From: Candidatus Poribacteria bacterium
GTDB taxonomy: Bacteria > Poribacteria > WGA-4E > UBA9662
Direction of reading: 5' to 3'
Assembly: GCA_036339735.1 (NCBI GenBank)
Contig: JAYZAL010000073.1
Location: 1 to 49,938, forward strand
Length of the DNA: 49,938 bases
Both the position numbers and the translations under genes were made by a program. How positions within the stretch are numbered: the stretch's first letter is position 1; each line of letters starts with the position of its first letter. The notes under the pieces were generated by a model, which made no database searches, was not told the origin of the DNA, and was given only the letters and a program-made list of their open reading frames with translations. Below are positions 9,661 through 42,159 of the stretch, piece after piece.

Positions 9661-9802
9661 CAATCGCGTTATACGCTATTGAATTTTTGAGTTGGCCACT
9701 CGGTTTTTGTTTTTATTGTTGATAATGTGTATGATTGTTATAATTTGGCTTCATGTTTTCGTAGAGAAAATTGACCTGAAATCATTTAAGGGAGAGTTAA
9801 AA

Positions 9803-11134
9803 ATGAGACGTTTGCATACATCGTTTCTGTTTACTTGCCTCGCAGTATTGATCGTTTCACCGATATTGGCGATGGCTGAAAACTGGCCTTCATGGCGTGG
9901 TCCTAATTCCAATGGAGTTAGTATCGAGACCGGCATTTCCACACGCTGGACGAAAACTGAAAATGTGTCTTGGCGAGTTCCCTTACCTGGTCCAGCAGGT
10001 TCTACACCTATCATCTGGGAAGATAGGATTTTTTTAACTTCGGCTTCTGAGAACGAAGACGATCTATTATTGATATGCCTGAACTCTAGTGGTGAAAAAC
10101 TTTGGCAGAAAAAACTTGGTTCCGGCAATCGTAATGCTCGAGGTAACGAAGGTAATTGTGCCTCACCATCTCCTTGTACTGACGGTAAGTATGTATGGGC
10201 CTATGTTAGTACTGGACATATTGGTTGTTACGATTTTGAGGGTAATGAAATTTGGAAAGGGAATTTGGAAAAATGGTATGGTACCTTTGACCTTTATTTT
10301 GTGATGTCTTCTTCACCCATAGTGGATGGTGATCGGCTTTATTTGCAACTTAATCATAGTAATTTGTCTTTGCTAGATGAAGATGCTGAGCAAAAACGGA
10401 AAGAAGACCAAAAGTCGGTTGGCTTGCTCATAGCATTGAATAAAATGACAGGAGAAGAGATTTGGGTTCATGAACGTCTTAGTGATGCTCATTCAGAGTG
10501 TGAGCATTCCTATGCATCTCCTGTCTTGTATAGGGATGATAAACAAGAATTTATAGTCGTTCACGGTGCTGATTACGTTAGTGGACATCGGTTGACTGAC
10601 GGTAGTGAAATTTGGCGTTGTGGTGGATTCAACAGTAAAGCCCGTTATAATCCTAGCCTCCGTTTTGTTGCAACACCGGCCATTATACCTGGACTAATCG
10701 TAGTACCATCCGCTAAAAATGGACCTGTGATTGGTTTGAGTCCATCGGCTATAGGGCGAATAACAGAACAGTCGGATAGTCATCTTTGGAAGAGAAGTGA
10801 TAATACACCTGATGTCCCATCTCCTCTAATTCATGACGGTTTAGTTTACCTCTGCCGTGAGAATGGTGTTCTAATTTGCATGTCAGCGGACACAGGCGAG
10901 GAAATATACCAAAGACGGACTCACAACAACCGGCATCGTTCTTCCCCTATTTATGCCGATGGGAAAATTTATCTCACTTCCAGAGATGGATTAGTAACAG
11001 TGATTAAAGCTGGTAGAAATTTTGAGGTGTTGGCAAAGAATGAGATTGGTGAAGAAATATCGGCTTCGCCAGCCATTGCAGATGGTACGCTCTATTTACG
11101 TAGCTACAAAGCACTTTACGCAATTCGGAATTAA
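9803..11134 (+). CDS. Secreted PQQ-binding-like/BamB-like beta-propeller protein
   Basis: Signal peptide, ENWPSWRGP, repeated S(S/T)P...G...W blades. Start moved to the ATG at 9803 behind GGGAG. Confidence 0.85.
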   Translation: MRRLHTSFLFTCLAVLIVSPILAMAENWPSWRGPNSNGVSIETGISTRWTKTENVSWRVPLPGPAGSTPIIWEDRIFLTSASENEDDLLLICLNSSGEKLWQKKLGSGNRNARGNEGNCASPSPCTDGKYVWAYVSTGHIGCYDFEGNEIWKGNLEKWYGTFDLYFVMSSSPIVDGDRLYLQLNHSNLSLLDEDAEQKRKEDQKSVGLLIALNKMTGEEIWVHERLSDAHSECEHSYASPVLYRDDKQEFIVVHGADYVSGHRLTDGSEIWRCGGFNSKARYNPSLRFVATPAIIPGLIVVPSAKNGPVIGLSPSAIGRITEQSDSHLWKRSDNTPDVPSPLIHDGLVYLCRENGVLICMSADTGEEIYQRRTHNNRHRSSPIYADGKIYLTSRDGLVTVIKAGRNFEVLAKNEIGEEISASPAIADGTLYLRSYKALYAIRN

Positions 11135-11193
11135 ATTTAATAATTCCACTGAAGGTTATTTAATAAAATTAGGTACACGGTCGGAGGTGTAAT

Positions 11194-13368
11194 ATGCGAA
11201 TTTTGGTTTTGATGTGTTTCTTTTGCATACTAACAACTAATATTAACAGCGCTGATTGGCCGCATTGGAGAGGCCCTAATCAAAATGGAACCTCGTCAGA
11301 GATAGGCTTAATCGATCGGTGGGAAGAAAGCGGCGATCAACTATTGTGGAAGGCTGACTTTGTCGGCCGTTCAACACCTATAGTGATGAATGATAGAGTT
11401 TATGTTATAGGACGAAGTGGGCATGAGATAACTGAGCAGGAACAAATCGCTTGTTTTTCTGTAAACAATGGTGAATTACTATGGGATTATAAATTCAATG
11501 TGTTTCATACAACAATTCCTTTTAACAGAGTTGGCTGGGCAAGTCCTGTTGGAGATCCTGAAACTGGTAATGTTTATGTACATGGTGTCCAAGGTATGTT
11601 TTTTGCCTTTACTAGTGACGGAGAAAAGTTGTGGGAAAAATCTTTGACGGAGACATTTGGCCGGATTTCTGGCTACGGAGGCCGGACACACACACCATTT
11701 ATTGATGGAAATCTGGTCATCATTAGCTATCTCAACACCAGCTGGGGGAGTCAGGCCCCAGGTAGACACCGATATTTTGCCTTCGATAAGAATACCGGTG
11801 AGGTAATTTGGGTTTCCACACCTGGTGGTCCACCAAAGGATACAACTTATTCAGTACCTATTGTTACTACGATTAACGGTCGTCGCCTTCTAATAGCAGG
11901 TAATGCTGACGGATCAGTATATGCTATGGATATCCGGACAGGTAAGTCAGTTTGGAAATTTGCTCTTAGTAAACAACGGGGATTAAATGCATCCGTAGTC
12001 GCTGATGGGCATTTGATTTACGCTTCTCACGGAGAAGAAAATATTGATAATACTGTAATGGGAAGAGTCGTTTGCATCGATGGGCGGGGGGACGGAGATA
12101 TTACCCGAACCCATGAAGTCTGGCGAGTTGATGGCTGTCAAGCAGGCTATAGTTCACCTGCTTTGCATGACGGAAGATTGTATGTAGTTGATCATTCAGC
12201 CAATCTTTATGCCTTTGATTCTAAGACAGGAGACCAATATTGGATTCATAATATCGGTACAGTCGGAAAAGGTTCTCCCATCTGGGCGGATGGTAAAATT
12301 TATGTTACCGAAGTCAATGGCCATTTTCATATTTTATCAGTTGGGCCAAGTGGAGTTAAAGTTGCTAGTACTGTTCAATTGAAAGTCAACGAAAATACAA
12401 AAAAAATCGAAAAAAGAAAACAACGTTATGCTGAAATTTACGGCTCGCCAGCAGTAGCCAACGGTCGGATCTTCTTTACTACTGAAGAAGGGATTTATTG
12501 CTTAGGTTATTCAAAGCAAGCACCTGCGACTCTTCGTTTGGTTCCGGCTGAGGTTGTTGTGCGACCAGGTCAGAAACTGACTTTCGATCTACGCTCTTTT
12601 GGCAATTCAGAGGGCAACAAAGAAGGATTACCACTTCAACTCGATCAAGTCAATTGGTCTAATAAAGGTTTATCAGGCACGATTGACAGTGGCACATTAA
12701 CTCTAAATGCAGATTCTACAAGTCATTCAGGGACAATTACTGCTCAGGTGGATGGTTCTAAAGCTACCTCACGTGTTCGTGTTATAGCTCCGTTACCTTG
12801 GCTAGAAGATTTTGAACAAGTTGACTTGGATACATTTCCTACTCATTGGATTGGTGCTGGGAGCAAATTCTTTGTCCGTCAAGACGGGAACAATAGGATC
12901 TTGGTGAAACCGCCAGTCAAACGAGGACTTAATCGTTCAGTTGTTTTTATTGGTACACCCGAAATGAGCGACTACACTATACAAGTCGATCTGAAAGGTA
13001 GTAAAAACAAAAGGCGAATACCAGATATGGGATTAGTCGCAAATCGTTATATCCTAGACATGCAAGGAATTCATCAAAGATTACAAGTTCGGTCTTGGTC
13101 GTCCGACTTACGAATGGCAAAGCACATCGACTTCGAATGGGATGTCAATGTGTGGTACACAATGAAAATGCAAGTGAAGGTAGATAGTGGCCAAGCAAGA
13201 ATTAAAGGTAAAGTTTGGGTAACAGGTCAAGCAGAACCAAATGAATGGAGCATTGAAGTAATAGATCCACTAGCCAATAAAACTGGTAGCCCAGGCATTT
13301 ACGGTTATTCGTCTGCTGAAATTCAGTACGACAATCTAGAAATAAAAGCTAGCAAGGGAGAAGAGTAA
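11194..13368 (+). CDS. Secreted PQQ-like beta-propeller with C-terminal Ig-like and beta-sandwich (lectin-like) domains
   Basis: Signal peptide, DWPHWRGP, propeller repeats to about aa 440, then beta-rich domains (DYTIQVD...WYTMKMQV...GSPGIYG...YDNL). The C-terminal domain calls are inference. Confidence 0.8.
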   Translation: MRILVLMCFFCILTTNINSADWPHWRGPNQNGTSSEIGLIDRWEESGDQLLWKADFVGRSTPIVMNDRVYVIGRSGHEITEQEQIACFSVNNGELLWDYKFNVFHTTIPFNRVGWASPVGDPETGNVYVHGVQGMFFAFTSDGEKLWEKSLTETFGRISGYGGRTHTPFIDGNLVIISYLNTSWGSQAPGRHRYFAFDKNTGEVIWVSTPGGPPKDTTYSVPIVTTINGRRLLIAGNADGSVYAMDIRTGKSVWKFALSKQRGLNASVVADGHLIYASHGEENIDNTVMGRVVCIDGRGDGDITRTHEVWRVDGCQAGYSSPALHDGRLYVVDHSANLYAFDSKTGDQYWIHNIGTVGKGSPIWADGKIYVTEVNGHFHILSVGPSGVKVASTVQLKVNENTKKIEKRKQRYAEIYGSPAVANGRIFFTTEEGIYCLGYSKQAPATLRLVPAEVVVRPGQKLTFDLRSFGNSEGNKEGLPLQLDQVNWSNKGLSGTIDSGTLTLNADSTSHSGTITAQVDGSKATSRVRVIAPLPWLEDFEQVDLDTFPTHWIGAGSKFFVRQDGNNRILVKPPVKRGLNRSVVFIGTPEMSDYTIQVDLKGSKNKRRIPDMGLVANRYILDMQGIHQRLQVRSWSSDLRMAKHIDFEWDVNVWYTMKMQVKVDSGQARIKGKVWVTGQAEPNEWSIEVIDPLANKTGSPGIYGYSSAEIQYDNLEIKASKGEE

Positions 13369-13374
13369 ATCATT

Positions 13375-14847
13375 ATGAACAAAAACAGGTCACTTTTCCA
13401 ACAGTTATTTTACTTGGCTATTAATAATCTGTTGTGTTTACTTTGTTTATCAGTTGTAGCAGATCAACATCCAGCTGATCAGTCAGTTGAAACCACTATG
13501 TGGGGATTTAGCCCTGACCGAAATTTAGTTTCAGCGGAAACTAATTTACCTTCTGAATGGGATGTTGATAATGGAACTAGTATCAAATGGGTGGCTCAGC
13601 TCGGTTCTCAAAGCTATGCTGGTCCGATTATTCACCAAGGTAAAATTTTTGTTGGTACTAATAATCAGGCTGTTTACAACCCCAAACTGACAGGGGATCG
13701 TGGGGTGTTGATCGCCTTCAATGAAGATGATGGAAAGTTTCTCTGGCAAATTACACATACTAAACTTTCTGCTGGTCGGGTTAATGATTGGCCTCAGCAA
13801 GGTATCTGCTCTGCTCCTTATATTGAAGGCGATCGAATATACTATATATCTAACCGTTGCCAAGTGGTTTGTATTGATACCGAAGGGTTTCTAGATGGTG
13901 AGAATGATGGTCCTTATACCGAGGAAAGTGATACAACTCCAATTGATGGTGATATTGTTTGGATTTACGACATGATGGAAGAGTTAGATGTCTTCCCTCA
14001 TAATCTAGCAACATGCTCACCGGTTGGGGCTGGTGATCTGTTATTTGTTGAAACAAGTAACGGTGTTGATGAAGGACATATTCACATTCCGTCGCCTTTG
14101 GCCCCAAGTTTTATAGCCATAAATAAAAATGATGGTCAATTAGTTTGGGAGGACGACTCACCTGGTGAAAGTATTCTGCATGGGCAATGGTCGAATCCAG
14201 CTTATGCAATTATTAACGAGCAACCACAGGTAATTTTTCCTGGAGGTGATGGTTGGGTATATAGCTTCGAAGCTGAGACTGGAAAGTTAATTTGGAAGTT
14301 TGACTGTAACCCCAAAGATTCAGAATGGGAATTAGGAGGGCGTGGTACCCGTAATAGCATTATTGCTACACCAGTTATTTACAATAACCGCGTTTATATC
14401 GGTGTCGGTCAAGACCCTGAGCATGGAGAAGGTGAAGGCCATCTATGGGCTATCGATGCGACCCAAACGGGTGATATTACTGAGACTGGTGCGGTATGGC
14501 ATTTCGGTAATGAAGATTTTAACCGTACTATGTCTACTGTTGCCATCTATAACGGGCTTCTTTTTGTAGCCGATCTAAGTGGGTTCGTCTACTGTCTTTC
14601 AGCAGATACGGGTGAGCATTACTGGACATATGATACGTTTGGTGCAGTTTGGGGGTCAACTCTTGTTGCAGATGGAAAAGTCTATATTGGCGATGAAGAT
14701 GGAGATGTAGCTATTTTAGCCGCAAGTAAAGAGAAAAAGTTAATCTTTGAAACCAATATGGGAAGTGCCGTTTATACGACTCCAATACCTCACGATGGCG
14801 TTCTCTATATTGTCAGTCGTAATAAGCTTTTCGCAATCGAAAAATAA
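13375..14847 (+). CDS. Secreted acidic PQQ-like beta-propeller protein
   Basis: Hydrophobic leader, IKWVAQLGSQSY, repeated G.L.W blades, DGKVYIGDEDG; starts 6 bp after the previous gene. Confidence 0.85.
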   Translation: MNKNRSLFQQLFYLAINNLLCLLCLSVVADQHPADQSVETTMWGFSPDRNLVSAETNLPSEWDVDNGTSIKWVAQLGSQSYAGPIIHQGKIFVGTNNQAVYNPKLTGDRGVLIAFNEDDGKFLWQITHTKLSAGRVNDWPQQGICSAPYIEGDRIYYISNRCQVVCIDTEGFLDGENDGPYTEESDTTPIDGDIVWIYDMMEELDVFPHNLATCSPVGAGDLLFVETSNGVDEGHIHIPSPLAPSFIAINKNDGQLVWEDDSPGESILHGQWSNPAYAIINEQPQVIFPGGDGWVYSFEAETGKLIWKFDCNPKDSEWELGGRGTRNSIIATPVIYNNRVYIGVGQDPEHGEGEGHLWAIDATQTGDITETGAVWHFGNEDFNRTMSTVAIYNGLLFVADLSGFVYCLSADTGEHYWTYDTFGAVWGSTLVADGKVYIGDEDGDVAILAASKEKKLIFETNMGSAVYTTPIPHDGVLYIVSRNKLFAIEK

Positions 14848-25057: not shown

Positions 25058-25384
25058 ATGATACCTGGAGAACTGATTGTGGCCGAAGGCCACATTACTA
25101 TCAATGAAAATCGGAGAACCTCTGAGATCGAAGTTACTAACGTTGGCGACCGACCAATTCAGGTAGGTTCGCATTTTCATTTTTTTGAAGTTAACTCGGG
25201 GCTAATTTTTGATCGTGAGTTAGCATATGGAATGCGATTGGATATTCCATCGGGTGTAGCTGTTAGGTTTGAACCCGGAGATAGTAAGACTGTAACCTTG
25301 GTTGAGTTAAAGGGTAAAGGTGTTGTCTACGGCTTAAATAATAAAGTTAATGGACCATTAGACCTAAATAGGAGTAGCAAATAA
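25058..25384 (+). CDS. ureB: Urease subunit beta
   Basis: [39 protein letters not shown]. Confidence 0.97.
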
Positions 25385-27090
25385 TGCGAATCTCAAAAAA
25401 AGCTTATGCAGATATCTATGGCCCGACCGTTGGAGACAAGGTGCGATTAGCCGATACAGAATTGGTTATCGAAGTTGAGAAGGATTATACCACATATGGC
25501 GAGGAATCTAAGTTTGGTGGTGGAAAGACCTTACGTGACGGGATGGGGCAAGCACCTGACGCCACGCGAGCCAACGGAGCCGTTGATTTAGTTATTACTA
25601 ACGCCTTAATACTAGATCATTGGGGTATTGTGAAAGCAGATATTGGTATTCGTGATGGGCAGATTGTTGGTATAGGCAAATCTGGCAACCCAAATATTAT
25701 GGATGGAGTCGATATTGTAGTTGGAGCTTCAACAGAAGTGTTAGCTGGAGAGGGCATGATTACAACTGCGGGAGGGATCGATGCACACATTCACTTCATC
25801 TGTCCCCAGCAGATTGATGAAGCTATTTCCTCTGGAGTTACCACCATGATTGGTGGTGGAACTGGTCCTGCCACTGGAACCAACGCGACTACTTGTACAC
25901 CAGGAGCATGGAATATCAGTAGAATGTTAGAGGCAGTAGAAGGCTTTCCTATTAATTTCGGATTTCTAGGGAAGGGAAATTCTTCTATGCCAGAAGCGTT
26001 GAATGAGCAAGTCGAAGCAGGTGCTATTGGTTTAAAGTTACACGAAGACTGGGGGACAACACCGGCTACTATTGATTGTTGCTTGAGTGTGGCTGAGACT
26101 TTCGATGTTCAAGTTGCTATCCATACCGATACACTCAACGAATCTGGGTTTGTAGAAGATTCAATTTCAGCTTTCAAAGGCAGAACCATTCACACCTATC
26201 ATACAGAAGGAGCTGGAGGTGGTCATGCGCCTGATATCATTAAGGTGTGTGGTGAAAGTAACGTTTTACCGTCTTCTACCAATCCAACACGTCCCTTTAC
26301 TATCAATACTATTGATGAGCATCTAGACATGTTAATGGTCTGCCATCATCTTGACGCATCAATCCCCGAAGACTTGGCTTTCGCAGAATCCCGTATTCGA
26401 TCTGAGACCATCGCGGCCGAAGATATTTTACATGACCTTGGGGCTCTCAGTATGATCGCTTCTGATTCTCAAGCAATGGGTCGTGTTGGAGAAGTTATTA
26501 GTCGAACTTGGCAAACAGCTCATAAAATGAAGGTTCAGAGAGGCACATTGAGTGAGGAAATAGGTAATAATGACAATTTTCGAGCAAAACGCTATGTGGC
26601 AAAATACACCATCAATCCGGCTATAGCTCATGGTATTTCGAACCATGTCGGATCAGTCGAGGTTGGTAAAATGGCTGATTTAGTAATTTGGCAGCCAGCG
26701 TTTTTTGGTGTTAAACCGCAATTAATTATCAAAGGAGGTTTCATCGTTTGGGCGGCCATGGGGGACGCTAATGCTTCAATTCCAACGCCACAGCCGGTTT
26801 TGGGGAGACCAATGTTTGGAGCTTTCGGTCGTGCACCATATACATGTTCTGCTAGTTTTTTATCGCTTGCTGGAGTAGAAAATAACATTAGTGATCATCT
26901 GAAACTACAGAAACGAATTTTACCCGTCTCTAATTGCAGAAACATTAATAAAGCATCAATGATTCATAATGCATATACTCCTCAAGTAACAGTTAATCCA
27001 GAGACCTACGAAGTCCGTGCAGATGGAGAACATTTAGTTTGTGCCCCGGCAGAAGTGCTACCAATGGCACAACGTTACTTTTTATTTTAG
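25384..27090 (+). CDS. ureC: Urease subunit alpha
   Basis: [64 protein letters not shown]. Confidence 0.98.
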
Positions 27091-27980: not shown

Positions 27981-28009
27981 TTGAACTGAGGTCATCAGTG
28001 TGTTAAAAT
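27981..28009 (+). promoter_or_regulatory. sigma70-type promoter of the proteasome operon
   Basis: TTGAAC-N17-TAAAAT with extended -10 TG. Confidence 0.55.
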
Positions 28010-28059
28010 TATCGAACCTCTGGAATTCCCACCAATAACCGACATATGAGGATTATCGG

Positions 28060-29817
28060 ATGCGTAAAAAACAAGATCGGACCGATATCAACAATGATCC
28101 TTTCCCAGATCGAGTCGGGGATGAAAATGCAGATGAAATAGCAGAAGATAACACTGAGCAATCTTCTATCCCACGCTCACTACTACTAGTAAACCAACTA
28201 CTTTATGTCACTGAGGACGATGACCAGCTTCGACCGATTCTTATGCAGTTGCGCCGCTCTATTATGGAGGACGAAGTCGATTTTAACGAAGCTCGGGAAA
28301 TTATTGAGCAACTGCAAGAAGCCGTTGATAAGCTGACGGCACCTGCGAACCGAATTGGCACATTAATAGGGCTAACCAGTCAGGGAACAGCCCATGTAAT
28401 TGTTGGTGGTACAGAATACTATACTAATATCGAGAGTAAAGTTGATCTTAATCAACTGAAGATTGGATATAGTGTTTTACTCAATGAAGCCTACGTTCTG
28501 ATTGGACATCTAGGCTATGGAAAGGCTGGACCAATAGTCAAAGTAAATGATTTTCTACCTGATGGCCGTATCCAAATTGGTCAAGAGCAAGGACTGAACT
28601 CTTCTATTCTCCAACGTTCAGCCGAACTATCAAATGTGAAACTTAAACCTGGAGATCTAATTCGGGTAGATACCAGCTACCGAATTGCCATTGAGAGAAT
28701 TGAGAGTCAAGGAAGTCAACAGTATTATGTGGAAGAAGTTCCTAATATGCCGTGGTCAGAAATTGGTGGTCACGAAGAAGCCATTCAACAGATCCAAAAT
28801 ACGATCGAATTACCAACCTTACATCCTGAACTGTTTAATCAGTTTGACTTTTCTTTACCCAAGGGATTCCTCTTATACGGACCGCCTGGTTGCGGGAAAA
28901 CACTGATTGGTAAAGCAACCGCGTATAATTTGACTCAAAAACTAAAAATCGAATCTGACTCGGATATAGATGGGTGTTTCCTACACATCAAGGGACCAGA
29001 GATTCTGAATATGTGGTTAGGAGAATCAGAACGAAAAGTTCGAGAAATCTTTCAAATAGCCAGAGAAAAACGGGATGAAGGATTTTTCCCTTTTATCTTC
29101 ATTGATGAAGCTGAATCAATCCTAGGAACGCGTAGATCCCTACGGTCTCATAATATTTCCAACACAGTTGTCCCCATGTTTTGTGCCGAGATGGATGGAA
29201 TTGAGTCGCTGAAAGACGTAGTTATTATTTTGGCGACAAACCGTCCTGACTTAATTGATCCGGCAATCTTGCGGCCCGGCCGAATTGATCGTAAGATTAA
29301 AGTCAATCGACCTACAGAAGAAGCTGTCAAAGATATTTTCCGCATTTATTTATCACCGAATTTACCATTGAGTCCTAATCTGTTGAAAGAAAATCAAAAG
29401 ACCAATGGATCAGTACAAGAGGTAATTGACGAAATTATAGATAATGTAACAAGTCAAATATTTGCACGTACTGATAGCAACCGGTTTTTGGAAGTATCTT
29501 TGAGGAGTGGTCGAAAAGAGGTCCTATACCGCGGAGACCTTTGTAGTGGTGCAATCATTGCATCAATTGTACAGCGGGCTAAGGAATCAGCCATAAAAAG
29601 AGCTATTGAGACAGGTAGCCGAGAACTGGGCATTGAAGCAGTTGATCTAGAAAACGCTGTCAATGCAGAGTACGACGAAAATGATATCTTCCCAGCAACA
29701 GACAGTGCTGAAGATTGGCTACGTTTGGTTGACTACGAACCAGAAAATGTCGTTAAAATAGAACCCGCTCGAGGTAGACAAACAAAAAGACGTGCTAACC
29801 CGATTACAGTGGTTTAG
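28060..29817 (+). CDS. arc: Proteasome-associated AAA+ ATPase (ARC/Mpa family)
   Basis: N-terminal coiled coil and OB-like region, GPPGCGKT, IKGPEILNMWLGESER, FIDEAES, TNRPDLIDPAILRPGRID, SGAII; first gene of the proteasome locus. Confidence 0.92.
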   Translation: MRKKQDRTDINNDPFPDRVGDENADEIAEDNTEQSSIPRSLLLVNQLLYVTEDDDQLRPILMQLRRSIMEDEVDFNEAREIIEQLQEAVDKLTAPANRIGTLIGLTSQGTAHVIVGGTEYYTNIESKVDLNQLKIGYSVLLNEAYVLIGHLGYGKAGPIVKVNDFLPDGRIQIGQEQGLNSSILQRSAELSNVKLKPGDLIRVDTSYRIAIERIESQGSQQYYVEEVPNMPWSEIGGHEEAIQQIQNTIELPTLHPELFNQFDFSLPKGFLLYGPPGCGKTLIGKATAYNLTQKLKIESDSDIDGCFLHIKGPEILNMWLGESERKVREIFQIAREKRDEGFFPFIFIDEAESILGTRRSLRSHNISNTVVPMFCAEMDGIESLKDVVIILATNRPDLIDPAILRPGRIDRKIKVNRPTEEAVKDIFRIYLSPNLPLSPNLLKENQKTNGSVQEVIDEIIDNVTSQIFARTDSNRFLEVSLRSGRKEVLYRGDLCSGAIIASIVQRAKESAIKRAIETGSRELGIEAVDLENAVNAEYDENDIFPATDSAEDWLRLVDYEPENVVKIEPARGRQTKRRANPITVV

Positions 29818-29843
29818 ATTTAGTTGTATGTAGTGAGGGAAAA

Positions 29844-31391
29844 TTGAGTAGACTTTTTGGTATTGAAACTGAATATGGAATTTCGGTGCAGGATCAGCCT
29901 GAGGCAGATCCTGTTACTCGGTCAATTGAGCTAATAAAAAGCTATCATTCTGATGATTTTCGCCCAATGTGGGATTATAAAGGCGAGGACCCATTCCAAG
30001 ACGAACGTGGTTTTCGTGCGCAACGCTTACAAGAGCACCCAGACGAAGAAATTCATCAGGAAAAAGACAGAGAACGAACAGAGTCGTTTGCTGAGATCAA
30101 AAGTGATCTTATATTAACTAATGGAGCAAGATTATACAACGATCATGCCCATCCCGAATATTCAACACCAGAATGTGTGAATTTATTTGAACTGGTTGCC
30201 CACGATAAGGCTGGCGAGCGTATATTGACCCGATGTATAGAAAAAGTTCGCGATAACTCAGGTGATATTATCGAACTTTACAAAAACAATACTGATTTCT
30301 CTGGTCATAGTTATGGTTGCCACGATAATTATCTAATGGAGCGACAAGTTCCTTTTAGCTACCTGAAATCCTCCCTAATTCCGTTTTTAGTTACACGGCA
30401 GATTTACGCTGGCGCTGGAAAACTTGGAATTGAGTCTGAAGGAGGTATGGAGGAATTTGGCTGTTTCCAATTAGCACAAAGGTCAGATTTTTTTCATGTT
30501 GAGACCAGTGTAGATACAATGCATAAACGGCCAATTGTCAATACTAGAGACGAACCACATGCTAATCCAACGAAGTATCGTAGACTGCATGGTATCGCTG
30601 GTGATGCCAATATGTCGGAGTATGCTACAGCGCTTAAAATTGGAACTACAGCCCTAGTTCTAGATTTAATCGAGTTACGAGTCGTTCCAGATTGGTTCAC
30701 ATTAGCTGATCCAATTGGGTCGATTAAAGCCATCTCGCGAGACCAAACCTACAAATGGGAATTTCGATTGCAAAATGGTAAAACTATTTCTGCCATAGAT
30801 CTTCAAAACGAGTATTTGAGTTTAGCTAAGAAGTATCTTGATCCTTCGAAAGGACAAAATAATTGGGTTTTGGCCGAATGGGAAGATGTGATCACTCAAC
30901 TTCAAATCGATCCCATGCAATTATCTGACCGATTGGATTGGGTCGCAAAAAAATGGCTGCTAAACACATTTGTGGAAGAGGAAGGGCTTAAATGGGAAGA
31001 TCCTTGGTTACAAAGTTTAGATTTGGCTTATCATAATATAGATCCCGATGTAGGATTGTATTATGGTCTTGAAGATCAAGGTTTAGTTCGGCGCTTACTA
31101 ACAGAAGAACAAATCGAATATGCAATTCATAACCCACCTGCGAGTACTCGTGCATATTTTCGGGGTAGTGTTGTCAAAAAGTTTCCCAACCAAGTCGAAT
31201 CTATACAGTGGGATCGTGTAACATTTAAGTCAAAGAATACAAGTCAAAATCGATTTTCTACCATTAGTATGGATAACATGGTAGACCCAGAACTGGTTAA
31301 TCGGTATAACCAATTAATCGATCAATCAGACACCGTTGACCAACTGATAGTTGGGGCTAGCGAAATCTCAAAATCAGAACCTAAAAATTAA
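29844..31391 (+). CDS. dop: Dop-like deamidase/depupylase (PafA2 family)
   Basis: GIETEYG, Dop-loop-like WDY..EDP..DERGF, NGARLYNDHAHPEYSTPE, SYGCHDNY, NTRDEPHA, RRLH. Confidence 0.88.
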   Translation: MSRLFGIETEYGISVQDQPEADPVTRSIELIKSYHSDDFRPMWDYKGEDPFQDERGFRAQRLQEHPDEEIHQEKDRERTESFAEIKSDLILTNGARLYNDHAHPEYSTPECVNLFELVAHDKAGERILTRCIEKVRDNSGDIIELYKNNTDFSGHSYGCHDNYLMERQVPFSYLKSSLIPFLVTRQIYAGAGKLGIESEGGMEEFGCFQLAQRSDFFHVETSVDTMHKRPIVNTRDEPHANPTKYRRLHGIAGDANMSEYATALKIGTTALVLDLIELRVVPDWFTLADPIGSIKAISRDQTYKWEFRLQNGKTISAIDLQNEYLSLAKKYLDPSKGQNNWVLAEWEDVITQLQIDPMQLSDRLDWVAKKWLLNTFVEEEGLKWEDPWLQSLDLAYHNIDPDVGLYYGLEDQGLVRRLLTEEQIEYAIHNPPASTRAYFRGSVVKKFPNQVESIQWDRVTFKSKNTSQNRFSTISMDNMVDPELVNRYNQLIDQSDTVDQLIVGASEISKSEPKN

Positions 31392-31434
31392 ATCTTAAAC
31401 AATGACGTTTGTGTGAGTACCGGAGGTTGAATCA

Positions 31435-31647
31435 GTGAATAGAAAACATCTAAATTCTGAATTGCCAATTTCGCTTCGAGAGAGAAAGCAAAAGCCTGCT
31501 GGCCCTTTTTTGCCTGGGGACGACGGGGACGATGATGGACCTAAAAGGCCAAAAGTCGACAGGCCTGATACTAGGGAGTTAATGCGTCGGATGAAACGAG
31601 TTGACAAAGATCAATCCAAGCGCTATCGTCAAAGGACTGGCCAATAA
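31435..31647 (+). CDS. ubact: Ubiquitin-like modifier UBact
   Basis: 70 aa, disorder-prone, GPKRPKVDRPDTRELMRRMKRVDKDQSKRYRQRTGQ; lies between dop and prcB; GGAGG 8 nt before the GTG. Confidence 0.9.
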   Translation: MNRKHLNSELPISLRERKQKPAGPFLPGDDGDDDGPKRPKVDRPDTRELMRRMKRVDKDQSKRYRQRTGQ

Positions 31648-31656
31648 ACAAGTAAT

Positions 31657-32547
31657 ATGCACAGATCATCTCTGAATTTAGACCCGTCAGTACAACAAGG
31701 TGCGAGTAACCCTAGCATATTGCAACAATCAGTTGATTATCAAGGTAACTTCCTTGACCTTCTGCGGGCAAACAACGTCCGTTTTTCAGCCTTACAGAAC
31801 CAAGGATCTAATGTAGCAACTCTTGGCCAAAATCATAATGAAGAGTTAATTGAAGGAACGACAGTAATTGCACTTCGCTATGAAGATGGGGTGGTGGTTG
31901 CTGGAGATCGGCGGGCTACAGCAGGTAATGTTGTGATGTATGACAGAGCTGATAAAGTTCTTGAAATTGATGAACATTCCGTAATGGCAATCGCTGGTTC
32001 GCCAGCGATTGCTTACGAAATGGCTCGAACTCTTGAGCATTCCTTCCAATATTTCCGTCGAACACAACTGCAAGAGTTAAGTGTCGAAGGTAAAATTAGG
32101 ATGTTGGCTCGTCTCATTCGAGATAACACTGCAATGGCATTACAAGGGGTAGGTGGAGTAGTTCCAATTTTTGCACTTTATGATTCCAATAACAAAACCG
32201 AAGATCTGGCTTCTCCCCCCGGTCGTATTTTTTTCTATGATGTACTCGGTGCTCAGTTTGAGACAGTAGATTTTGCAACATCCGGATCAGGTTCAGTTTG
32301 GATCCGCGGAGTCTTACACTATCTGGACCGGTGGTCTGGAACACGACTATCCCAAATGGATATTAATCAAGCAACGTCCACTATTCTGAGGTTGTTAGAT
32401 ACTGCAGCTGAGTTTGATACAGCGACCAGTGGAACCAATATGAAATCTCAAATTTACCCCGTTATCAAAACTGTCACCCAAGATGGTGTTCAAGAACTAT
32501 CACTTGACCTGATTCAACAGGTTTATGAAACAGTTGTCCAAGTTTGA
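31657..32547 (+). CDS. prcB: 20S proteasome beta subunit with 67-aa propeptide
   Basis: G|TTVIAL autocleavage site (Thr1 codon at 31858), AGDRRAT, ADKV, TSGSGS. Confidence 0.92.
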   Translation: MHRSSLNLDPSVQQGASNPSILQQSVDYQGNFLDLLRANNVRFSALQNQGSNVATLGQNHNEELIEGTTVIALRYEDGVVVAGDRRATAGNVVMYDRADKVLEIDEHSVMAIAGSPAIAYEMARTLEHSFQYFRRTQLQELSVEGKIRMLARLIRDNTAMALQGVGGVVPIFALYDSNNKTEDLASPPGRIFFYDVLGAQFETVDFATSGSGSVWIRGVLHYLDRWSGTRLSQMDINQATSTILRLLDTAAEFDTATSGTNMKSQIYPVIKTVTQDGVQELSLDLIQQVYETVVQV

Positions 32548-32557
32548 GGAAACTTGA

Positions 32558-33361
32558 ATGTTTGAAGAACATTATCGTTACTTAGAATCAATTCAAAACC
32601 GGCGTGATTATATTGAAGATCAAATTCGGACAGGTAGTCCAGTTATTGGTTTAGTCTACGATGATGGTATCTTGATTTTGACGTTGACCAGTAGTCAAAA
32701 GCTATACGAAGTACATAATCATCTCGCACTTTCCGCTATTGGTCACATTGCTGATATTGAGAGACTTCGACTATTAGTGACTGATTCTGCTTCAGTTCAA
32801 GGATTTCAGAGTTCTATTGATGATGTTACTCTTCATCGTCTAACAAACTTTGTTTTATGTCCACCAATAAAGCAATCTTTTGAGTCAGTTTTTAACCCGC
32901 CTACTGTGGCAAAAATCCTATTAGCTGAATTGGGTAGGTTAAACCGGCCGCATCAATTGGTAACTGTTAATTATGATGGAACTACTGCTATTGAAAAACA
33001 TGTAGCGGTTATAGGAGGTTCTGAAGATACCGAACAATTAATGCGGAACTATATTGATCAAACAGCATCTAGACTCGGTGATAAATTAACTTTGCAAGAT
33101 GCTTTTGAATTAGCTATTCAAACTTGGGCAGTTGGTCGTATGGCCAATCAACGATCCAATCAGGAAATGCAATTAGAAGCTGGTGTGGCAGATTATGATG
33201 TTGAGCAATTGAATCAATGTTTACAAACAGAGTTGATTGAATTGCAAGTAGAAGTTGGTACTTTGCAAACTTCTAAGCGAGGAAAAAGTAAATTTCGCTC
33301 CTTGACCGATCAGGAAATAGCGAGCTTCTTGCCTTTCGAGATTAGTGGAGATGAATGTTGA
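32558..33361 (+). CDS. prcA: 20S proteasome alpha subunit
   Basis: GSPVIGLVYDDGIL, QKLYEV, AIGHIADIERLR, VIGG; follows prcB. Confidence 0.85.
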   Translation: MFEEHYRYLESIQNRRDYIEDQIRTGSPVIGLVYDDGILILTLTSSQKLYEVHNHLALSAIGHIADIERLRLLVTDSASVQGFQSSIDDVTLHRLTNFVLCPPIKQSFESVFNPPTVAKILLAELGRLNRPHQLVTVNYDGTTAIEKHVAVIGGSEDTEQLMRNYIDQTASRLGDKLTLQDAFELAIQTWAVGRMANQRSNQEMQLEAGVADYDVEQLNQCLQTELIELQVEVGTLQTSKRGKSKFRSLTDQEIASFLPFEISGDEC

Positions 33362-34800
33362 GTAAGCGAATTTTTGGTTTAGAAACCGAATTTGGTTGTC
33401 TTAATAAATCGGATGAGTTTGGTTCTTCTGAGAAAGTTGCTTCAATCGTTAAAGATTGTATTTTTTCAAATTTGTCGCTCGGGATCTTTGATATGCACTA
33501 CCGTGATTGGGGTGAACCCCCTCACAATGGTGGTTTTTTATTCAATGGTGGTCGTTTGTATATGGATATGGGACATCTAGAGTATGCCACACCTGAATGT
33601 TTACGACTCTTTGATTTAGTAGCTTACGATCGATCCATCGAATTATCGATTAGAGACGCTTTAGAAACTTTGGGGTTACAAGGCCAAGTTTCCTTTCTTA
33701 AAAACAATATCGACCATGTAACTGGTGCGACGTTCGGTTGCCACGAAAACTACCAACTTAGACGGGACGTACCTTTTTACAAAGTGGTAATTCCAACTCT
33801 ATTGCCTTTTTTCGTGACCCGGCAAATTTATGCGGGTGCGGGCCGTGTTGGAGGCCATGAAGAAGCTGATGATTACCAAAATACCAAAAGTACAAATAGC
33901 GATTTTGTCGGGTTTCAAATTTCCCAACGGGCAGATCACATCGTGACCGAAGTCTATGAGTGGATTCAATTTAGTCGGGCTATTATCAACACTCGCGATG
34001 AGCCGTTAGGCGATCATACGAAGTATCGTCGGCTACATCTTTTAGTTGGTGATTCCAACATGTCTGAATTTGCTAATGCGCTGAAGGTGGGTACGACTTC
34101 TTTAATGCTAGATTTACTGGAGACTGGATATTCACTACCAGACTTAAGCATTGAAGATGCTATTTTTTCTATAAAAGATATTTCCCGTGATCCTAGTCAT
34201 CATTGGTTAGTGACACTCAAATCAGGCCGAACGATCACGGCGGTTGAACTTCAGTGGGAATATTTTCAGGCTTGCGACCAAATTCTGCGGGGACAAGACG
34301 CTGAAACTGATTGGGTGTTAGATGCTTGGAGTGAGACACTCAAAGAACTGGAATCAGCCCACCGTCACCTACCAGAAAATTTAGTCGGGAAAATTGATTG
34401 GGTCACCAAACAGTGGCTACTAGAAAGTTTTATGAAAGAAGAGTCCATCGGTTGGGATGACCCTTGGCTTGAAAGTCTTGATCTCGAATACCATAATATT
34501 GACCAAGAACTTGGACTATATTATGACTTAGAATGCCAAGGTTACACAACAAGAATTACCGAAATGGGAAAAATTCAAAAGGCGACGGAAAAGCCTCCAC
34601 AAGACACTAGAGCTAAGGGAAGATCATCTTTGATGAACTATTTGTCGACAAATGAGATTCCCTGCATTGTTGATTGGCACCAAATATACTTACCTGATAG
34701 GAAACCCTTCGAAATGCAGGACGCATTTCAAACATACGAAAAGGAAGCTGAAGAGTGCGTCAAGGAATTAGAAGTTAAAAAACCGTTCTTTGCAGAATAA
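33355..34800 (+). CDS. pafA: PafA-like Pup/UBact-protein ligase
   Basis: RIFGLETEFG, FLFNGGRLYMDMGHLEYATPEC, FGCHENY, SQRADH, INTRDEP, RRLHLLVGDSN, PPQDTRA; lacks the Dop loop. Confidence 0.88.
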   Translation: MLSKRIFGLETEFGCLNKSDEFGSSEKVASIVKDCIFSNLSLGIFDMHYRDWGEPPHNGGFLFNGGRLYMDMGHLEYATPECLRLFDLVAYDRSIELSIRDALETLGLQGQVSFLKNNIDHVTGATFGCHENYQLRRDVPFYKVVIPTLLPFFVTRQIYAGAGRVGGHEEADDYQNTKSTNSDFVGFQISQRADHIVTEVYEWIQFSRAIINTRDEPLGDHTKYRRLHLLVGDSNMSEFANALKVGTTSLMLDLLETGYSLPDLSIEDAIFSIKDISRDPSHHWLVTLKSGRTITAVELQWEYFQACDQILRGQDAETDWVLDAWSETLKELESAHRHLPENLVGKIDWVTKQWLLESFMKEESIGWDDPWLESLDLEYHNIDQELGLYYDLECQGYTTRITEMGKIQKATEKPPQDTRAKGRSSLMNYLSTNEIPCIVDWHQIYLPDRKPFEMQDAFQTYEKEAEECVKELEVKKPFFAE

Positions 34801-40402: not shown

Positions 40403-41521
40403 TTAGATTGGTTCTATTGCGGTTATTCTACAACAAACATCACCAAAACGGATAGAACTGCCAACGACGACTGGTGTGGGCTCTGAAATCTTGATTTCGT
40501 TAACATATGTACCATTTGTACTATCCAAGTCAGTCACATAAATTTGATTGCTGCGTAACTCAAACTGAGCATGTTGACGAGAAAGCGTTCGATTTGGATC
40601 AGGTACATGGATATGTGCCAGTTTCTCACTGCGTCCAAGAATTAGATGTCGTGCTTGAACGGTAAATATTTGCCCCGCCTGCTGCCCCTCAATTTCTTTA
40701 AAAGAAATCATTGAGGTTCCTGTTTCTTTCTCAATTTCAATGACCTCAAGGGATTGTGTTCCTACTGATACAACAGTACCTACACTAATCTGCGTTGGTT
40801 CGTGAATTGAGGTGCCATCTATCTGTGTCCCGGATTCACTATCAAGATCGGTCAAATACACTTGATCTTTTTCTATTGTCAATTGACAGTGAATGGACGA
40901 AATAGTCGCGTTTCTTAGTAATGATATCGTATTCTGTTTGTCGCTACCGAAGGTCACGTGCTTAATTTCAAGATTAAATTCTTTCGACAACTCACCTTCG
41001 ACATCAACTTCTAGTGTCAATTGCCAATCGCTCAAACTAACCGGAACCGAGAATTCTGAACCTAGAGGCAGAATTTCATTATCCAAGATAGCCAGACTAC
41101 TTACCGAATCCCCAGTAAGTACATGGGCCTCATCATAGGCCAATTCGCTTGCACTGCCCAACTGGTCAGGACTGTATGCAGCCTGTGGTATATAGCTTAC
41201 ATTAGGCGTTGACTGTTTTTGGTCTTTTCGGATCGACCTAAGCAGGTTATCTTTCATACGCGTCTGCACTTCTGAGGAGAGCATGTGGTTGGTTGATTCT
41301 ATCAAACTGATTGTATCAGCCAACTCTTCTCCCTTATAACATTGATAAGCAAGATCCACCAGTTCTTTCAAAAGTTGGCTACTATCCCTCTCTTGAAAGA
41401 ATCGTAAGAACCGCTGTTGCTTCCCTGACAATTTTTCACCGCGAACCCACCGTGTGTAAGACTCCAGCATTTCAGCTTGGTCGGCTTCGCTCTCCGACGG
41501 AAGTCGATTCCAAAATCCCAT
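40403..41521 (-). CDS. Soluble tandem FHA-domain protein with helical N-terminal domain
   Basis: Second FHA is canonical (LGR...SRQHA...DLDSTNGT). First is degenerate (FGS...SSIHC...DLDSESGT). Confidence 0.85.
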   Translation of the reverse strand: MGFWNRLPSESEADQAEMLESYTRWVRGEKLSGKQQRFLRFFQERDSSQLLKELVDLAYQCYKGEELADTISLIESTNHMLSSEVQTRMKDNLLRSIRKDQKQSTPNVSYIPQAAYSPDQLGSASELAYDEAHVLTGDSVSSLAILDNEILPLGSEFSVPVSLSDWQLTLEVDVEGELSKEFNLEIKHVTFGSDKQNTISLLRNATISSIHCQLTIEKDQVYLTDLDSESGTQIDGTSIHEPTQISVGTVVSVGTQSLEVIEIEKETGTSMISFKEIEGQQAGQIFTVQARHLILGRSEKLAHIHVPDPNRTLSRQHAQFELRSNQIYVTDLDSTNGTYVNEIKISEPTPVVVGSSIRFGDVCCRITAIEPI

Positions 41522-41538
41522 ATGTTAATCTCCTGATC

Positions 41539-42159
41539 TCAGCTTTCTAAATGAGAAAGTTGGCTAAATCCGTTGCGAACCATAATTTGACGTAGTTCCT
41601 GTGTACATCGAAATATCCAAATCTTCACAGTTCCCTCTTTCCTTTTGAGGATACCTGAAATTTCTGCAATGCTGCACCCTTCCAGGTGCCGCAAAACCCA
41701 AGCAGTCCGGTGGTTGGGCTTAGTTACTTGTTGTAATGCAAGAAGCAAGATGTCCTTTGACTCTTTTTCTTCGACGACTTTATCTGGGGTTGGAGCGCTG
41801 TCTCTGTAATGAGCCAGCGGGACTTCCGACTCCTCTTCCATCAATAATAGAGACTCACGGATCCTTTCTCTTTTACGAATTGCATCAATAATGGTATTCT
41901 TGGCCACAGTGTTCAGCCATGCTTGAAAACTACCCTGTTTGGGGTCCCACTTATCAATTTTTTGCCAGACCTTCATGAAAACATCCATCGTAACTTCTTC
42001 AGTATCTCGATGATTGTGTAACGTTCGGTAGGTTTTACTATAAACCCAACCCGAATGCTTGTCCATGAGACGGCAAAATGCCTGCTCATCACCCAACTTG
42101 AGCTGGTTGGCTAAATGAGTATCTTCCTGAGCAGATGCCTCTTTGGCAAGTCGGGACAA
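41539..42159 (-). CDS. ECF RNA polymerase sigma factor
   Basis: GDEQAF, DTEEVTMDVFMKVW, FQAWL..VAKN..ID.IR, region 4 SIAEIS.IL...EGTVK; TTG after AAGGAG. Confidence 0.92.
   Translation of the reverse strand: MSRLAKEASAQEDTHLANQLKLGDEQAFCRLMDKHSGWVYSKTYRTLHNHRDTEEVTMDVFMKVWQKIDKWDPKQGSFQAWLNTVAKNTIIDAIRKRERIRESLLLMEEESEVPLAHYRDSAPTPDKVVEEKESKDILLLALQQVTKPNHRTAWVLRHLEGCSIAEISGILKRKEGTVKIWIFRCTQELRQIMVRNGFSQLSHLES

Follow-up and report, generated by a model that had tools for sequence, protein, structure and literature searches.

Whether UBact is more than a divergent Pup is a question in the field of bacterial proteasomes, and a locus of a Candidatus Poribacteria bacterium raises it within a single genome. 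The window analyzed here, i.e. the whole stretch of 49,938 nucleotides of contig JAYZAL010000073.1 (assembly GCA_036339735.1), carries at positions 28060-34800 a genuine six-gene operon for UBact tagging and degradation, of a kind that has already been described and is annotated in databases. By itself this operon adds one more member to the described UBact family, and its value lies in its genome context, because the same genome contains a second, Pup-type operon. We consider it probable that two proteasome systems of the Pup family, both complete and deeply diverged from each other, work here side by side, as insulated tagging-degradation pathways in one cell.

Protein families were assigned with Pfam and NCBIfam profiles against their curated or equivalog cut-offs, and the six genes of the operon were identified as follows.

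28060-29817, forward strand: ARC/Mpa-type proteasomal AAA+ unfoldase of the UBact type, 585 aa, C-terminus ...NPITVV (AAA, Prot_ATP_ID_OB_N and Prot_ATP_ID_OB_C)
29844-31391, forward strand: Dop-type deamidase/depupylase, 515 aa (Pup_ligase, E 2e-169; TIGR03688 509.1, cut-off 492.3)
31435-31647, forward strand: UBact modifier, 70 aa, GTG start, ending in KRYRQRTGQ (PF20513, NF033388)
31657-32547, forward strand: 20S proteasome beta subunit PrcB with a long propeptide, 296 aa (Proteasome family; TIGR03690 172.6, cut-off 191.9)
32558-33361, forward strand: 20S proteasome alpha subunit PrcA, divergent, 267 aa (Proteasome, 32.7 bits; TIGR03691 72.2, cut-off 139.05)
33355-34800, forward strand: PafA-like enzyme of the Pup-ligase family, presumed UBact ligase, 481 aa, net charge -32 (Pup_ligase, E 3e-131)

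These open reading frames (ORFs), their coordinates, strand and families agree with the initial annotation of this DNA, which had claimed a complete UBact tagging and proteasome operon in the actinobacterial gene order. UBact is encoded between dop and prcB, giving the cluster arc-dop-x-prcB-prcA-pafA, and the intergenic gaps are, in gene order, 26, 43, 9, 10 and -7 nt. ARC, PrcB, PrcA and the PafA-like protein each score under their own NCBIfam equivalog cut-offs. The UBact loci of Gram-negative bacteria have these six genes too, likewise in this order, with no difference in the operon found here, and the modifier of the window ends in R-T-G-Q. Such UBact-proteasome loci were reportedly described in 2017 by Lehmann, Udasin, Livneh and Ciechanover (BBRC), in a list said to include Poribacteria. 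Families, order and presumed chemistry are also those of the actinobacterial Pup system (Mycobacterium, Corynebacterium), with which the operon shares the Dop loop, the GhExE motif, the catalytic Asp, a Gln/Glu handle at the C-terminus of the tag and the Thr1 protease.

The modifier was matched by UBact models only. It scored 67.4 bits with PF20513 (cut-off 27.8; E 9e-19) and 72.6 bits with NF033388 (cut-off 35); unlike the actinobacterial tag, it is basic (isoelectric point, pI, 10.5) and has no match to the Pup models PF05639 and TIGR03687 at E up to 0.01. Its residues include 8 K, 12 R, 9 D and 3 E, and a GGAGG lies 8 nt upstream of the GTG start. Translation and UBact profiles agree on a UBact-type modifier ending in YRQRTGQ and not in GGQ or GGE, as had been claimed. 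An R-[TS]-G-[EQ] C-terminus, and not G-G-[EQ], is what we take to be the mark of UBact, and the protein of the window bears it. An alignment of 20 UBact sequences contained 14 invariant columns, including Y64, Q66, R67, T68 and G69. The C-terminal residue was Gln in 5 of the 25 UBact rows (the window's among them) and Glu in the other 20; the 16 Pup rows were divided evenly, with 8 Gln and 8 Glu. The initial annotation had also required deamidation of the terminal Gln before ligation. By analogy with actinobacterial biochemistry, the Gln of the window's protein would imply this step, but with 20 of 25 rows ending in Glu it is not a general need of UBact. The C-terminal pattern Y-x-Q-R-x-G-E/Q is common to UBact and Pup, which fits a common active-site chemistry.

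The host is a marine Candidatus Poribacteria with a genome of 4.32 Mb in 107 contigs (92% complete, 2.41% estimated contamination). The nearest relatives of its UBact-type Dop belong to metagenome-assembled genomes of Candidatus Poribacteria (closest 92% identity) and then to Verrucomicrobiia, and six Omp85-family matches in the host genome, from a search whose control was positive only in 7 diderm genomes, bear out the earlier view of a probable diderm. A search of the host genome for the Pup-ligase family returned, besides the two genes of the window, two more on another contig, C66 (four in all). The latter contig carries a second operon, arc-dop-pup-prcB-prcA-pafA (locus L015, 6502-13045, minus strand), of which ARC, Dop, Pup, PrcB and PrcA are at or above the NCBIfam equivalog cut-offs and PafA scores 535 (cut-off 551). 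Its modifier is an acidic Pup that matches TIGR03687 and ends in YVQRGGE, and its ARC ends in GGAYL. Between the UBact-type and the Pup-type proteins, identity is 38% for ARC, 42% for Dop, 37% for PrcB, 25% for PrcA and 36% for PafA, and BLAST of UBact against the C66 Pup gave no match. Judged by these identities of 25-42%, UBact is a deep paralogue of the Pup system. Divergently upstream of the Pup-type arc, contig C66 also encodes an AAA+ protein of 814 aa (L015:14272-16716, plus strand); its N-terminal region is long, and its match to ARC is weak (31% over 166 aa).

In the initial annotation UBact stood as the organism's Pup-equivalent, a claim that had to be given up: with a canonical Pup-proteasome operon in the same genome, UBact is one of two parallel systems. 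The co-occurrence of both modifiers was then surveyed in two phyla, Poribacteria (121 sampled genomes, the host's included) and Verrucomicrobiota. Among the Poribacteria genomes, 115 had a UBact match, 116 a Pup match and 113 both; G064, G043, G046, G002, G004 and G006 were without a UBact match and G072, G119, G002, G004 and G006 without a Pup match. Loci were retrieved at about one per genus (14 UBact and 15 Pup loci, with 14 genomes having both), and in 8 of these 14 genomes the UBact and Pup loci lie on one contig, several of them multi-megabase and from assemblies of one or two contigs. The co-residence is therefore not a binning artefact. That the Pup operon of the host genome is a contamination of the metagenome bin, an idea to which a 107-contig assembly with its estimated 2.41% contamination lends some color, is refuted by the same observation and retains practically no probability. 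Furthermore, with both systems in 113 of 121 genomes, UBact is not a Gram-negative stand-in for Pup in Poribacteria; the explanation that it is the organism's only Pup-equivalent, as the Gram-negative counterpart of Pup, is refuted for the host genome and very improbable overall. It may hold in Verrucomicrobiota, where UBact occurs only sporadically (over the cut-off in 7 of 201 genomes) and a Pup match was present in none of the 7 UBact-bearing genomes checked (G234 lay outside the check). One Verrucomicrobiia genome without a Pup match, G121, carries two complete UBact-type operons, each on a contig of its own (L006 and L007).

The gene order of both operons is constant across genera, with the exception of one Poribacteria family. 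In the three genomes of this family (G008, G100 and G104), four Pup-ligase-family genes each are spread over four contigs; their UBact loci (L027, L028 and L029) comprise UBact-prcB-prcA-pafA without an adjoining arc or dop, and their Pup loci (L041, L042 and L043) have no adjoining pafA. In G064, which has no UBact match, the only Pup-ligase-family genes are the two of the Pup locus. In G046, which has Pup and no UBact match, a third Pup-ligase-family gene (G046:C195:6730-7932, in a 661-aa open frame) was found apart from the Pup operon.

Gene order and the six families are identical in the UBact operon and in the C66 Pup operon of the same genome, whereas the charge of the modifier is opposite and the charges of its partners are shifted. 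The host's UBact has a net charge of +8 and a pI of 10.46 and its Pup a net charge of -17 and a pI of 4.12, and the earlier description of UBact as rich in Arg and Lys, unlike acidic Pup, is thus correct. Over the last 30 residues the net charge of the modifier was +3 to +9 in the 25 UBact rows (one of them a duplicate locus) and -10 to -12 in the 16 Pup rows. Among the partners, the mean net charge of the whole protein in the UBact type and the Pup type was -27.2 and +2.0 for PafA (ranges without overlap), -24.9 and -15.9 for Dop, and -25.5 and -18.4 for ARC; in the two control proteins it was -7.0 and -9.4 (PrcB) and -16.6 and -15.1 (PrcA). The corresponding values for the host genome alone were -32 and +2 for PafA, -28 and -19 for Dop, -26 and -15 for ARC, -11 and -10 for PrcB, and -15 and -18 for PrcA. 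The three tag-binding proteins are shifted towards acidity and the two 20S subunits are not, which supports electrostatic matching between the tag and its partners.

The site at which ARC would catch the tag was compared separately. The N-terminus of the window's ARC has a net charge of -13 over the 97 residues ahead of the OB domain, strongly acidic as first reported, and of -8 over the last 55 of them. Over these 55 residues, which form the coiled coil, the mean was -4.0 in the UBact type (-8 to -1, n=21) and +0.6 in the Pup type (-2 to +4, n=16). A basic H-R-R-N-R-K-like cluster was present in the coiled coil of all 16 Pup-type ARCs, and all 21 UBact-type ARCs had an acidic E-D-E-like cluster no more than one or two helical turns from the position of the basic one. 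Comparison with the Pup operon of the same genome thus lends support to the charge-reversed recognition proposed in the initial annotation, but the largest shift is that of the PafA-like ligase (-32 vs +2) and not that of ARC. Among UBact-type PafA and ARC proteins, those of Verrucomicrobiia, which are without Pup, are less acidic than those of Poribacteria. This is suggestive of character displacement, but as one contrast, with proteome composition uncontrolled, it was not used as support.

The window's ARC scored 465.5 bits with TIGR03689 (cut-off 504.75) and 348 bits against Mpa structures. It has a coiled coil, two OB domains and an AAA module, the architecture of actinobacterial Mpa/ARC, with the Walker A motif GPPGCGKT, the Walker B motif DEAE and an aromatic-hydrophobic-Gly pore loop, W-L-G, aligned to F-V-G of Mpa. 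The tails of the two types are different: UBact-type ARCs end in V-I/V without an aromatic residue in 22 of 22 rows, and Pup-type ARCs end in [YF][LF] in 16 of 16. The penultimate-Tyr tail of the canonical Pup-type ARC is accordingly absent from the window's protein (...PITVV). According to PMC8755798, 20S docking of Mpa is mainly determined by the penultimate Tyr of its GQYL motif; the window's ARC, unlike the actinobacterial one as described there, has no GQYL-type tail, and UBact-type ARCs probably dock only on their own alpha ring. In the beta subunit, Gly-Thr1, Asp17 and Lys33 are conserved after the propeptide in the alignment. The UBact-type alpha subunit lacks the N-terminal SPYYVSPEQ motif of the Pup type and, in the operon studied here, has an insertion near its C-terminus; the Lys of the K-I/L-x-E motif is kept in the alpha subunits of both systems.

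RNA data bear on the operon as a unit. A total of 20 RNA runs from 11 studies contained part of the operon stretch, and in four metatranscriptomes from four studies contigs, mostly 99% or more alike, covered 30, 29, 28 and 26 of 30 bins. All five junctions are bridged by RNA-library contigs (arc-dop, dop-UBact-prcB, prcB-prcA and prcA-pafA). The UBact operon is thus probably an expressed member of a known, annotated family. The features of ARC and of the alpha subunit could also be read as a sign that UBact tagging is not mainly degradative, either because ARC cannot dock on the 20S particle and acts as a stand-alone unfoldase or because the tag is regulatory. The missing aromatic penultimate residue in all UBact-type ARC rows, the strong divergence of the alpha subunit (TIGR03691 72 vs 139) and the absence of the Pup-type gate motif speak for this explanation. 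We regard it as quite improbable, because prcB and prcA lie within the operon, 9-10 nt from their neighbors, and are kept there in two phyla, the catalytic residues of the beta subunit are intact, and RNA-library contigs bridge UBact-prcB-prcA-pafA.

Gene 2 was confirmed as the Dop homologue claimed earlier: its score is 509.1 over 492.3, and it has both a Dop loop and the motif DHAHPEY. The loop bears WDY, and 94 residues separate GhExE from the catalytic Asp; a conserved Trp in the Dop loop is mentioned in PMC8599861. The motif NDHAHPEYSTPE (DHAHPEY; D-H-A-H-P-E-Y-S-T-P) corresponds to the Dop states of table 1 of Hecht et al. (PMC7947786), where D-H-A beside the catalytic Asp is among these states. 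The assignment of gene 6 is less clear. It scored 346.2 with the PafA model TIGR03686 (cut-off 551.3) and 337.5 with the Dop model, both under the cut-offs, and 259 and 250 bits against solved structures of PafA and Dop, respectively. According to the same table of Hecht et al. (PMC7947786), the PafA states near the catalytic Asp are Phe at position 7 and an inserted hydrophobic residue, Gly, Ser and Ala. Of these, gene 6 has the Phe at position 7, a hydrophobic residue and Gly after the catalytic Asp, and Ala at position 13; unlike actinobacterial PafA, it lacks the Ser insertion and has a Dop-like length there, with D-M-G-H-L-E-Y (with small variations) in 21 of 21 rows. Judged by the published states, its alpha-loop matches neither PafA nor Dop, save for a His and a Ser. 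The active-site spacing of gene 6 is 63 residues, as compared with 52 in the canonical PafA of the same genome and 90-94 in its two Dops, and a stub of 11-12 residues in gene 6, likewise a difference from actinobacterial PafA, can be aligned with the beginning of the Dop loop.

Maximum-likelihood trees of Dop and PafA contained four clean clades, in which each Dop was joined with the PafA of its own system. Support for this grouping by system was SH-aLRT 94 in a quick tree and ultrafast bootstrap 83 / SH-aLRT 84 under LG+C20, with a long-branch warning, and Dop monophyly was not rejected by the approximately unbiased test (p 0.28). The Dop-loop stub, the Dop-length active-site spacing and the tree grouping with its own Dop suggest that the UBact ligase may have arisen separately from a Dop-like hydrolase, although it may equally be a true orthologue of PafA. 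With respect to substrates, Block et al. (PMC10465538) report that arginines of rim site 2 of PafA bind them, and by alignment Arg137, Arg207 and Arg218 (C. glutamicum numbering) are conserved in gene 6. Rim site 3 (R442, K444) was tried as a discriminator and rejected; it is absent from the UBact-type ligase and, by eye, apparently from the genome's canonical PafA too.

The rim site 2 arginines, together with the Y-x-Q-R-x-G-E/Q end of both tags and the Lys of K-I/L-x-E in both alpha subunits, would fit a different explanation, in which there is partial redundancy or cross-talk between the two systems, with different tags but with ligases, deamidases, unfoldases or 20S particles able to work on either. 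This explanation is unlikely in our view. The charge inversion covers the tag and the three tag-binding proteins and spares the 20S subunits, the ARC tails of the two systems differ, and both full gene sets persist in 113 of 121 genomes, even with dispersed operons (3 genomes with 4 Pup-ligase genes each), a retention that argues against redundancy.

Some considerations nevertheless weigh against two insulated pathways. The charge contrast is essentially one evolutionary comparison, of the UBact clade with the Pup clade, in related genomes, and the common C-terminal handle could let the enzymes of both systems cross-react. In the alignment, the Pro- and Gly-free stretch of UBact has a length of just about 20 residues, and Pup on Mpa forms a 30-residue helix (PMC8755798); recognition by ARC may therefore differ and not simply be inverted. 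With its nearly equal PafA and Dop scores, its Dop-loop stub, the missing Ser insertion and an odd alpha-loop, gene 6 is by its sequence not securely a ligase. The RNA coverage concerns the UBact operon alone, not the Pup operon, and RNA libraries can hold DNA; with no silent control stretch, the coverage is consistent with transcription and no proof of it. Finally, no bench data on any UBact step were found in the literature searched, in line with the earlier statement that UBact conjugation and substrates are largely untested.

Two insulated, parallel systems remain the reading that we prefer, and by analogy with the actinobacterial system the UBact pathway might run as follows. The Dop homologue would first convert the last residue of UBact from Gln into Glu by deamidation and would later take the tag off again. 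The PafA-like enzyme would phosphorylate this Glu and join UBact to lysines of the substrate. A hexamer of ARC would catch the tag on its N-terminal coiled coil, thread it and unfold the substrate, which the operon's own 20S particle would then degrade. Cross-reaction between UBact and Pup would be prevented by the basic body of the tag, by a ligase, deamidase and unfoldase more acidic than their Pup paralogues, and by the different ARC tail, and the outcome would be a cell with two separate degradation tags. A more specific version, in which acidic Pup and basic UBact codes are mutually insulated in one Poribacteria cytoplasm, each served by a separate ligase, deligase, unfoldase and 20S particle, the UBact ligase perhaps being separately derived from Dop, is put forward only tentatively, at somewhat less than even confidence.

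Upstream of arc, two candidate features of transcription were recorded.

27981-28009, forward strand: candidate promoter, TTGAAC, 17-nt spacer and TG-extended TAAAAT, scoring 9 of 12
28030, forward strand: possible transcript 5' end, at which contigs of the RNA runs X1 and X3, from two independent studies, end exactly and are followed by adapter

The single upstream promoter of the initial annotation could not be established and 27981-28009 stays a candidate only, because the region contains 21 promoter-like sites, some of them inside the operon, as against 22.2 +/- 5.6 in shuffled sequences; scans of the region for promoters and terminators performed no better than shuffles. Position 28030 lies 30 nt ahead of the ATG of arc and 21 nt past the -10 candidate. 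It is a weak hint of an RNA 5' end, and since its spacing misfits the -10 candidate, it may be a processed end and not a transcription start.

The genes flanking the UBact operon belong to ordinary metabolism, and a scan of 33 flanking ORFs with a length of at least 110 aa found no tricorn protease. A urease alpha-subunit gene lies at 25384-27090 (forward strand), with a 356-nt gap upstream of it and no further urease gene among these 33 ORFs. Three consecutive genes for PQQ/BamB-like beta-propeller proteins of 480, 724 and 490 aa occupy 9692-14847 (forward strand), and at 40403-42159 (reverse strand) a gene for an extracytoplasmic function (ECF)-type sigma factor is followed by genes for a protein with two FHA domains and a protein with TPR and Peptidase_MA_2 domains.

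A genome with UBact together with a full Pup system was not found in the literature searched, nor were an acidic UBact-system ligase, deamidase and unfoldase, a non-aromatic ARC tail or Dop-like features of the ligase, although the 2017 UBact paper may mention some of these. The word UBact occurs in 21 of the papers searched, in none of them in the title or abstract and for the most part in an unrelated sense. A term search of a 2025 minireview of degradation by bacterial proteasomes gave no mention of UBact, and PMC13696103 and PMC12288473 have no word on it. Outside Actinobacteria and Nitrospirae, Dop and PafA are described as sporadic by Hecht et al. (PMC7947786).

The presence of UBact and Pup in one genome, as full and separately conserved gene sets, argues that the distinction between them is real and makes it testable within one organism. 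The calculated tryptic remnants on lysine are GGE (243.0855 Da) for Pup and TGE (287.1117 Da) for UBact, and because these are different, existing sponge and seawater metaproteomes can be searched again for both tags. The pair offers a natural experiment on how the specificity between tag, enzyme and unfoldase is encoded and, for synthetic biology, two orthogonal degradation tags. If the two pathways are indeed insulated, bacteria would possess parallel protein-tagging codes, like those of eukaryotic ubiquitin and its relatives.

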